From Escherichia phage vB_EcoM_E9.1, in sequence record PP886230: 64,000 bases of DNA. One strand, 5' to 3'. The notes beneath the pieces are model-generated. The model was not told the DNA's origin. It made no database searches and saw only the letters and a list, made by a program, of their open reading frames with translations. Shown here piece after piece: positions 63,117 through 63,207 of this stretch (positions are counted from its first letter, which is position 1; the number at the start of each line of letters is the position of its first letter). The position numbers and the translations under genes were made by a program.

Positions 63117-63207
63117 GTTTTACATCAGGACGGGGGAACGAAATAAGTAACTTCCCGTTAAGTAGCCCAGGAGTAAGGCACACGAAAAACTCCCCTGATA
63201 AAATAGT

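Follow-up and report, generated by a model that had tools for sequence, protein, structure and literature searches.

In a 64,000-nt stretch of DNA from Escherichia phage vB_EcoM_E9.1 (sequence record PP886230), hereafter called the window, we have identified a structured RNA element in a segment without a gene (63117–63207) that lies between two early promoters, P1 and P2 (Table 1). The element consists of a hairpin followed by a pseudoknot, a motif that is common to the RaK2-like jumbo phages, a few rV5-like and phi92-like phages and the phages of the T7 group. The initial annotation, made from the letters of the window, had proposed a candidate small RNA with a hairpin. Our sequence comparisons go beyond this hairpin and indicate that the functional core is the pseudoknot in the 3' half, to which there are homologues in the T7 group. 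It is very likely that the motif is a real RNA structure maintained by selection, and it apparently represents an undescribed family of early-leader pseudoknots that includes nt 550–588 of T7. In the window, positions 63124–63203 constitute the 5'-terminal domain of the transcript made by the host σ70 RNA polymerase from promoter P1.

The core of the element (63158–63195) is predicted to fold into an H-type pseudoknot of about 38 nt, with the pseudoknot proper at 63159–63193 and hairpin P1 directly before it. The general layout is 5'-(P1 hairpin)-YUAAGUA-[G N C]-NN-[S2, 4-5 nt]-(N)UAA-[G N' C]-NN-ACGAAAAA-[S2']-3', in which helix S1 has 3 bp and helix S2 has 4–5 bp, and in which the unpaired segments UAAGUA, UAA and ACGAAAAA are near-invariant. 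Both pairings suggested in the initial annotation were recovered. The hairpin (ACGGGGG with UUCCCGU) is present in the minimum free energy (MFE) fold, and its helix is conserved and covaries across lineages, with changes from G-C to G-U among the close variants. The longer pairing thought to enclose it (AUCAGG with CCUGAU), here called P0, also forms in the MFE fold and closes the whole unit to 76–79 nt in this phage group. P0 is invariant in 20 close variants and hence gives no covariation for or against the helix, and it is absent from the T7-group copies.

Taken singly, the MFE fold of the window segment is unexceptional (z = -1.5). The segment stands above chance because the 20 distinct close variants (alignment A1) share one common three-helix fold, with z from -1.3 to -3.6, and because the core covaries across phage families. 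Inside the close family the covariation is weak, with two compensated pairs that are not significant on robust measures. For the broader comparison, 28 distinct cores (alignment A2) were set against 500 shuffles and against slid controls, in which the pairing partner was moved by 1–3 columns. Standard pairs fill 98.5% of the cells compared to 73.3% in the shuffles, and the covariation score is 0.543 compared to 0.121 ± 0.029; none of the 500 shuffles reached the observed value of either measure. The slid controls pair in 16–37% of the cells. Compensatory changes were seen in four of the seven pairs. The middle pair of S1 is A-U in 18 cores, U-A in five and C-G in four, with a single mismatch, while the pairs of S2 are of the types C-G/G-C, C-G/G-C/U-A and U-A/A-U/U-G. 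The S2 variants GGAG/CUCC, GGUG/CACC, CCAG/CUGG, CCUG/CAGG, CUUG/CAAG and CCUG/CGGG all pair, and the two exceptions to pairing are a real mismatch in phage EmilieFrey and one row shifted by a 1-nt deletion.

The covariation test is not circular, since the covarying positions were left free (N) in the retrieval pattern and the 3' strand of S2 lies outside it. Furthermore, G-U pairs occur on the sense strand only, which argues for RNA rather than DNA. In most lineages a hairpin ends directly 5' of UAAGUAG, and it does so with unrelated stems, such as CCGG/CCGG, CGGG/CCCG, GCCAC/GUGGU, GCUG/CGGC, UCCAG/CUGGA, GGGA/UCCC and ACGGGG/CCCCGU. Among 28 T7-like sequences, the identity is 0.89–0.98 in the motif columns, 0.39–0.70 in the A1/A2 promoter regions and 0.07–0.79 in the remaining leader, figures that carry the ascertainment caveat of a pattern-based retrieval.

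The untranslated interval between the E. coli promoters A1 (498) and A2 (626), as annotated in T7, and likewise that of T3, is a true homologue of the window element in both sequence and structure, with the same core, a 5' hairpin, a strong early promoter before it and a promoter after it. The T7 copy differs in that it lacks P0, begins about 50 nt after the transcription start, leaves a gap of only 2 nt to the -35 hexamer of A2 and is present in a single copy, and the T7 record annotates nothing but promoters at the site. A blastn survey located the T7-type motif in 507 phage records at 508 places, that is about one each, and most of the listed matches are unannotated there; they include T7, T3, T7M and many podophages of Klebsiella, Salmonella, Yersinia, Serratia, Enterobacter and Citrobacter. 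When IMG/VR was scanned with a degenerate pattern, 32 stretches were recovered, nearly all from T7-like contigs of 36–45 kb. The motif was found only in phages of Enterobacterales.

The window copy has the features that define the T7 A1–A2-type motif: a core with complementary S1 and S2 strands, a 5' hairpin and an early-promoter location. Model R2 gives 54.4 bits (E ~1e-10) to window 63158–63195 and 57.8 bits to T7 550–588, a match by construction as R2 was built from both. Independently of R2, the S1 (GCC/GGC) and S2 (GGAG/CUCC) strands both pair in the window copy, and blastn and the pattern scan link the copies. The genomic setting is shared as well. We compared 55 distinct contexts. Wherever the scan found a σ70-type promoter upstream, its -10 hexamer ends 25–62 nt before AAGUAG (43 nt in the window), and a promoter with at least 10 of 12 consensus positions starts 1–42 nt past the pseudoknot in 49 of the 55 (14 nt past S2' in the window). 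The distance of the motif from the left genome end is about 550 bp in T7, and in the jumbo genomes it is 3.4–3.7 kb or the motif falls inside the annotated terminal repeat. The motif lies in the DNA that enters the cell first.

By its sequence, the window belongs to an Asteriusvirus-like jumbo coliphage of the PBECO4/121Q group, the last 1.5 kb being 97–99% identical to the Asteriusvirus jumbo coliphages EC.P1, fEgEco12, PBECO4, G17 and 121Q. Every Asteriusvirus genome checked contains three to four copies of the element, of which two are canonical (three in EJP2), in addition to a diverged copy d. Copy a is located ahead of a gene for a protein of 203 amino acids (aa), and copy b about 10 kb further on, ahead of a different gene. 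The 76–79-nt unit was also identified in four Vequintavirinae (A73, W70, A7_1 and A5-4) and in three Justusliebigvirus phages (muut, outra and EmilieFrey), where each copy sits behind its own kind of promoter and is followed by a different promoter and gene. The case of A7_1 marks the boundaries of the unit, since the shared stretch there extends only from the transcription start region to GAUAAAA, between native promoters. Metagenome and viral pattern scans with the canonical variant recovered only Asteriusvirus contigs.

The early regions of some Vequintavirinae and Justusliebigvirus phages share many small genes and promoters with Asteriusvirus, at 70–92% nucleotide identity, and the gene gp109 of muut together with the element is 92.6% identical to the copy-b block of PBECO4. 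These similarities in sequence point to a common pool of early cassettes that may be exchanged between unrelated coliphage families.

Some of the copies have diverged considerably. A covariance model built from alignment A1 detected copy d of PBECO4 (146472–146536) as a diverged paralogue with 24 bits. It retains CUAAGUAG..AGUAAG.C..ACGAAAAAC, but GGAG/CUCC has been replaced by CCAG/CUGG, and GYC/GRC by GAC/GUC. A blastn search with copy d matched T7-group phages and the further jumbo phages Munch, 7t3, fENko-Kae01 and Hallingskeid. Likewise, the RaK2 copy (230046–230083) reads UCAGUAG-CU-GG-CCAG-UAAAGC-AU-ACGAAGUC-CUGG, with GCU/AGC in S1, so that a second pair of this helix varies as well, and CCAG/CUGG in S2; it lies behind its own promoter and a GAGAU/AUCUC hairpin, and both covariance models detect it weakly (E 0.3–2.5). 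Finally, copy a of EJP2 (15343–15412 in locus L015) has a compensated S2 helix (GGUG/CACC) and a weakened P1 hairpin, and it is the sole variant with an ATG at the would-be start, which opens a 12-codon open reading frame (ORF), MKNTPDKRIKKY.

In the window, small genes on the plus strand are arrayed from about 61.38 kb on, each with a near-identical σ70-type promoter ahead of it. Promoter P1 had been described as a perfect copy of this early promoter, and it is indeed identical to the one at 62529–62556. We infer from the spacing only that transcription from promoter P1 would start at A63122 to A63124. The claim that no start codon precedes the next promoter also holds, as the plus strand of 63117–63207 contains no ATG, GTG or TTG, and the only plus-strand ORFs that touch the segment start upstream and cross promoter P1. 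There is no intrinsic terminator between promoters P1 and P2, nor any terminator-like site in 63117–63267, and transcripts from promoter P1 should thus extend into the following gene, barring processing. Hence, the expectation of a short structured transcript stands in part: the structured, ORF-less RNA is borne out by the conserved fold, whereas a discrete transcript of 80–100 nt finds no support in the sequence.

The usual early cassette, as defined by scanning 24 kb of the early region in PBECO4, consists of a promoter, ACATC, a GGGGAA..UUCCCC hairpin, about 10 nt, a Shine-Dalgarno sequence, 7–9 nt and ATG, with a 5' untranslated region (UTR) of about 50 nt. Hairpin P1 is equivalent in position to this cassette hairpin, which on its own is generic to most early 5' UTRs of the phage. 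The element differs from the generic UTR by its larger hairpin loop and by ACG in place of ATG, and it has CCAGGAG at the Shine-Dalgarno position. The GGGGAA..UUCCCC hairpin is conserved in most early cassettes (window 61380–64000 and PBECO4), 3–8 nt past the inferred transcription start, and many of the cassettes open with ACATCGAGAG.., which is matched by the start of the T7 A1 transcript (ATCGAGAGGG). A 36-aa ORF at 63005–63115 crosses promoter P1; the records of some relatives list it as a hypothetical protein (g05 in fEgEco12, for example), which is probably a spurious call, and in several records the element itself lies under annotations of hypothetical proteins.

Table 1. Coordinates in the window of the parts of the element, its promoters and features nearby.
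Feature	Position	Strand	Remarks
Promoter P1	63089–63116	+	-35 TTGCAA (63089–63094), 16-nt spacer, -10 TATAAT (63111–63116); 10/12 in consensus scan
P0, 5' strand AUCAGG	63124–63129	+	Outer closing helix with 63194–63199; MFE and RNAalifold
Hairpin P1	63130–63158	+	ACGGGGG (63130–63136) pairs with UUCCCGU (63152–63158); loop 63137–63151
Junction UAAGUA	63159–63164	+	Single-stranded; invariant or nearly so over 28 distinct cores, partly imposed by the retrieval pattern
S1, 5' strand GCC	63165–63167	+	Pairs with 63177–63179
S2, 5' strand GGAG	63170–63173	+	Shine-Dalgarno-like; pairs with 63190–63193; helix extendable by U63174-A63189
Loop L2 UAA	63174–63176	+	Invariant; positions fixed in the retrieval pattern
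S1, 3' strand GGC	63177–63179	+	Pairs with 63165–63167
Loop L3 ACACGAAAAA, consensus NNACGAAAAA	63180–63189	+	ACGAAA near-invariant between lineages, partly imposed by the pattern
S2, 3' strand CUCC	63190–63193	+	Pairs with 63170–63173
P0, 3' strand CCUGAU	63194–63199	+	MFE and RNAalifold
A/U-rich tail AAAAUAGU	63200–63207	+	Homology to the copy in phage A7_1 (Vequintavirinae) stops at GAUAAAA; no terminator
Promoter P2	63208–63235	+	TTGACA-16-TATAAT, 12/12 consensus; drives the next gene
Downstream ORF, 203 aa	63268–63879	+	Outside the element, whose copies precede at least five different genes
Promoter-like site	62870–62898	+	TTGACT-17-CATAAT, TG before -10
Promoter-like site	63042–63014	-	TTGACA-17-CATAAT, TG before -10

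The element matched none of the RNA families searched. A scan of the window against Rfam 15 at the gathering thresholds returned only three tRNAs, a scan of 62840–63270 at E <= 10 returned only weak and unrelated matches (the best with 17 bits against a gathering score of 40), and a scan of the T7 leader (480–930) identified no family. ARAGORN found neither a tRNA nor a tmRNA at the element, and no tRNA model matched in the region at E <= 10; the three tRNA genes of the window (Met-CAT, Asn-GTT and Thr-TGT) are located at 174–2071, at the opposite end. Mimicry of a host RNA is unsupported, as neither 5,426 E. coli genomes nor plasmids contained a match, and the pattern scans, run on 185,579 genomes of bacteria and archaea, identified only one contig of a metagenome-assembled genome, which looks like a T7-like phage. 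A conserved mini-ORF was rejected because 19 of the 20 close variants have ACG (AAG in one of them) at the would-be start, and an extra C in muut breaks the frame. A type III antitoxin RNA was also rejected, in that there is a single unit per locus and neither tandem repeats nor an adjacent toxin gene. Like a stand-alone small-RNA gene, the element has its own promoter, but no terminator defines a 3' end in 63117–63267; each homologue has its own, often different, promoter. The sole match to boxA in the window (22405) is at chance level. Our literature searches, which included literal sequence strings, retrieved no more than papers in which the A1/A2 template sequence of T7 is printed, and none on RNA structure at the A1–A2 site, although the older T7 literature was not covered and an earlier description is possible. 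No transcriptome data for Asteriusvirus were found in the literature.

What might such an RNA do? The best explanation as a whole, which we put forward tentatively and not without doubt, is that the hairpin and pseudoknot form a conserved early RNA domain that binds a host factor, with the RNA itself as the product. The near-invariant unpaired nucleotides could form a tertiary surface for a putative conserved partner, and a host factor is a likelier partner than a phage protein because the carriers are otherwise unrelated. That the RNA itself is the product is suggested by the restriction of the motif to a subset of the promoters, one of three in T7 (A1, not A2 or A3) and three of the 41 σ70-like sites scanned in PBECO4, and also by the dedicated promoter of each copy and the separate promoters of the downstream genes. 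It is also favored by P0, which pairs the first transcribed nucleotides with the sequence after the pseudoknot to give a closed domain of 76–79 nt with an A/U-rich tail; this closed domain holds for the jumbo, rV5-like and phi92-like copies. The host polymerase would make the RNA seconds after the DNA enters, ahead of any phage protein, and the RNA would act as a decoy or modulator of the putative host factor. It could do so while still attached to a longer leader as its 5' domain, or as a stable RNA of about 80 nt that is released by cleavage in the A/U-rich tail. A trans-acting mechanism of this kind, taken by itself, is possible, and we hold it with even more reserve.

An extended version of this hypothesis, which we regard as speculative and on balance unlikely, is that the motif acts as an RNA effector of the immediate-early phase, in the form of an aptamer or decoy that needs no protein and is used from T7 and T3 to 350-kb jumbo phages to neutralize or redirect a conserved enterobacterial factor. 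Candidate targets may be the RNA polymerase/Rho/Nus machinery, a ribonuclease or a defense sensor. If true, it would be the first RNA-only factor for host takeover or anti-defense in the T7 paradigm and, depending on the partner, could reveal a new way in which phages handle host transcription, RNA decay or defense at entry. Few phages have been studied as thoroughly as T7, and its A1 promoter is a standard in transcription biochemistry. A pseudoknot in its first transcript that is supported by covariation, missing from Rfam and common to unrelated jumbo, rV5-like and phi92-like coliphages would be a piece of overlooked early biology. For annotators, the motif provides a named feature for promoter units of about 90 nt that seem empty and that in some records are covered by spurious small ORFs.

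Several observations weigh against an RNA domain that is the product in itself, or against the strength of the evidence for the motif. Helix S1 has only 3 bp and the pseudoknot is a prediction from sequence. The retrieval pattern fixed 19 positions, and the invariance of UAAGUAG, UAAG and ACGAAA is therefore partly by construction. Inside the genus Asteriusvirus, conservation of the element does not exceed that of its neighbors (90% identity in 121Q, 71% in EJP2), and its identity to the rV5-like and phi92-like copies (87–92%) is the same as that of the shared early genes; the latter figure is not exceptional because these phages share many Asteriusvirus early genes at 70–92%. With no intrinsic terminator after the element, the sequence does not define a discrete RNA. 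Furthermore, most T7-group phages lack the P0 helix and have the pseudoknot 2 nt before the -35 hexamer of A2, which fits a leader element better. In copy d, which lacks the first hairpin, and in the metagenomic contig L049, no more than a weak promoter-like site comes after the motif, and both copies look like gene leaders (for copy d, the 5' leader of gp267).

The main rival, which we consider unlikely but by no means negligible, builds on these leader-like copies. By analogy with known early leaders, the motif could act in cis by making the host RNA polymerase resistant to pausing or to Rho-dependent or intrinsic termination, so that early transcription becomes processive. The motif is always on the sense strand and 25–62 nt from a strong σ70 promoter, no terminator separates it from the downstream genes, and the early cassettes have no terminators between them, so that a modified polymerase could read many genes. 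Its tight abutment to A2 in the T7-like phages would fit too, as would the position of the motif about 12 nt before a boxA-like CGCTCTTTAACAA in L049 and the presence of boxA further downstream in the T7-group leaders. However, the boxA of T7 comes after A3 and serves all three promoters, whereas the motif is placed to serve one, and the few motif-bearing sites in PBECO4 raise the same difficulty. A strong promoter that bypasses the motif almost always follows, and no downstream terminators in need of suppression were seen in the window. A more passive role in cis is improbable: as a stabilizer, the structured 5' domain would block 5'-end-dependent attack or scanning by RNase E on transcripts from promoter P1. 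The base pairing of the 5' end from about the first transcribed nucleotide in this phage group is in line with such a role, and the 5' hairpin in most early cassettes suggests that 5' protection matters. Yet an obstacle requires neither some 19 near-invariant unpaired nucleotides nor a pseudoknot that is kept between T7-like and jumbo phages, and in T7 the motif is about 50 nt from the 5' end.

The compact fold, the highly conserved unpaired nucleotides and the A-rich third loop would also suit an aptamer for a small molecule or an ion, riboswitch-like and akin to the small H-type aptamers preQ1-I or SAM-II. We find this idea hard to sustain, given that no riboswitch family in Rfam matches even at E up to 10, that there is no expression platform (neither terminator nor anti-terminator, and the downstream ribosome-binding site is not sequestered) and that the downstream genes differ and have their own promoters; a riboswitch class was rejected for these reasons. 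The element could instead be the remnant of an early-gene cassette, a 5' UTR that lost its start codon and ORF by recombination between repeated promoters and now hitch-hikes without function. It does contain parts of the generic cassette, namely ACATCAGG, the GGGGAA..UUCCCC hairpin, CCAGGAG at the Shine-Dalgarno position and ACG for ATG; copy a of EJP2 even has an ATG and 12-codon ORF, and its conservation within Asteriusvirus is not above that of the neighbors. Nevertheless, the exchange of GGAG for CCAG, CCUG or GGUG with exactly compensating changes in the partner strand largely refutes this explanation, the motif occurs in T7-group phages without this type of cassette, and three to four copies are kept in every Asteriusvirus although the flanking direct-repeat promoters could delete them. 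We consider it very improbable, and the compensated S2 swaps in copy d and in the T7-group copies led us to reject both a vestigial cassette and a stabilizer based on a Shine-Dalgarno sequence without a start. Least probable of all is an element at the DNA level, such as an UP element or a protein site for the downstream promoter. The T7-group sequence GAAAAACAGG is at about -47 to -38 of A2, the place of the proximal UP subsite in the general consensus, but the next promoter lies at no fixed distance (1 to 42 nt), and helix-type covariation with G-U pairs on the sense strand and a pseudoknot is not explained by a site in duplex DNA.

The hypothesis of a host-binding RNA domain can also be viewed in the light of known phage RNAs. 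The put sites of HK022, with two stem-loops, and the nut sites of lambda, with boxA and boxB, are cis-acting early-leader RNAs that modify the host RNA polymerase. Like the element, they are short, structured and ORF-less RNAs just downstream of early phage promoters, but they contain no pseudoknot and precede the terminators that they suppress, whereas the element is followed by a new promoter and no terminator. The comparison was made by description only, and the likeness to put is positional (promoter-proximal, sense strand). The leader of the T4 gene 32 mRNA contains a pseudoknot that is the autoregulatory binding site of gp32. This pseudoknot is comparable in that it is compact, of the H-type and located at the 5' end of a phage transcript, where it is bound by a protein. 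However, it belongs to a single gene and a single phage protein, while the genes downstream of the element vary and its carriers are unrelated, which points to a host partner. The preQ1-I and SAM-II aptamers and the type III antitoxin RNAs (ToxI) are pseudoknots of about 35–50 nt with an A-rich loop. The element resembles them in size, pseudoknot topology and loop, but differs in having no Rfam match, expression platform, tandem repeats, toxin gene or copies in plasmids and bacteria.

The organization of the early region is similar to that of the PeSL cassettes in T4-type phages, in which repeated modules of a σ70 promoter and a GGGG..CCCC stem-loop flank small early ORFs and mediate their shuffling (PMC2839356, PMC4122927). 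The stem-loops in these cassettes are described as effective terminators or attenuators for transcription from upstream (PMC2839356). The early region of the window is built alike and the element is passed between phages as a cassette of this type, but its hairpin comes after the start site and has no U-run, it flanks no ORF and it adds a pseudoknot.

Just upstream of the element, at 62870–63042, there is another unit without an ORF, in which two promoter-like sites point toward each other across about 115 bp. In RaK2, K64-1, GAP32 and CBB the start of its plus-strand transcript (62899–62951, AUUCAUUGGCAGAUAAGCCGUAGCCCAUAGGGUGC..GUAUCUAUA) is conserved and follows a promoter of its own, and a related CCCATAGGGTGC motif recurs at about 141.3 kb in PBECO4. 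We consider this unit a candidate for a second early non-coding RNA.

A few other features of the region are worth recording. The palindromic octamer CAGTACTG occurs 51 times in the window (for example at 60084, 60124 and 62884), compared to 0.9 expected from shuffles, and is often found inside promoter spacers (CAGTACTGTATAAT, CAGTACTGGCATAAT), while AGTACT is located just upstream of many -35 hexamers (AAAAAGTACTTGCAA). Further upstream, about 4 kb (57400–61380) are devoid of ORFs of at least 110 aa and include degenerate tandem repeats of 16, 32 and 40 nt at 60553–60645 (GGCTAGACG.., GGCTAAACGGCTAGA). The physical end of the genome, or else the beginning of a terminal repeat, is probably located in this region, since the record of fEgEco12 begins there, at about window position 59724.

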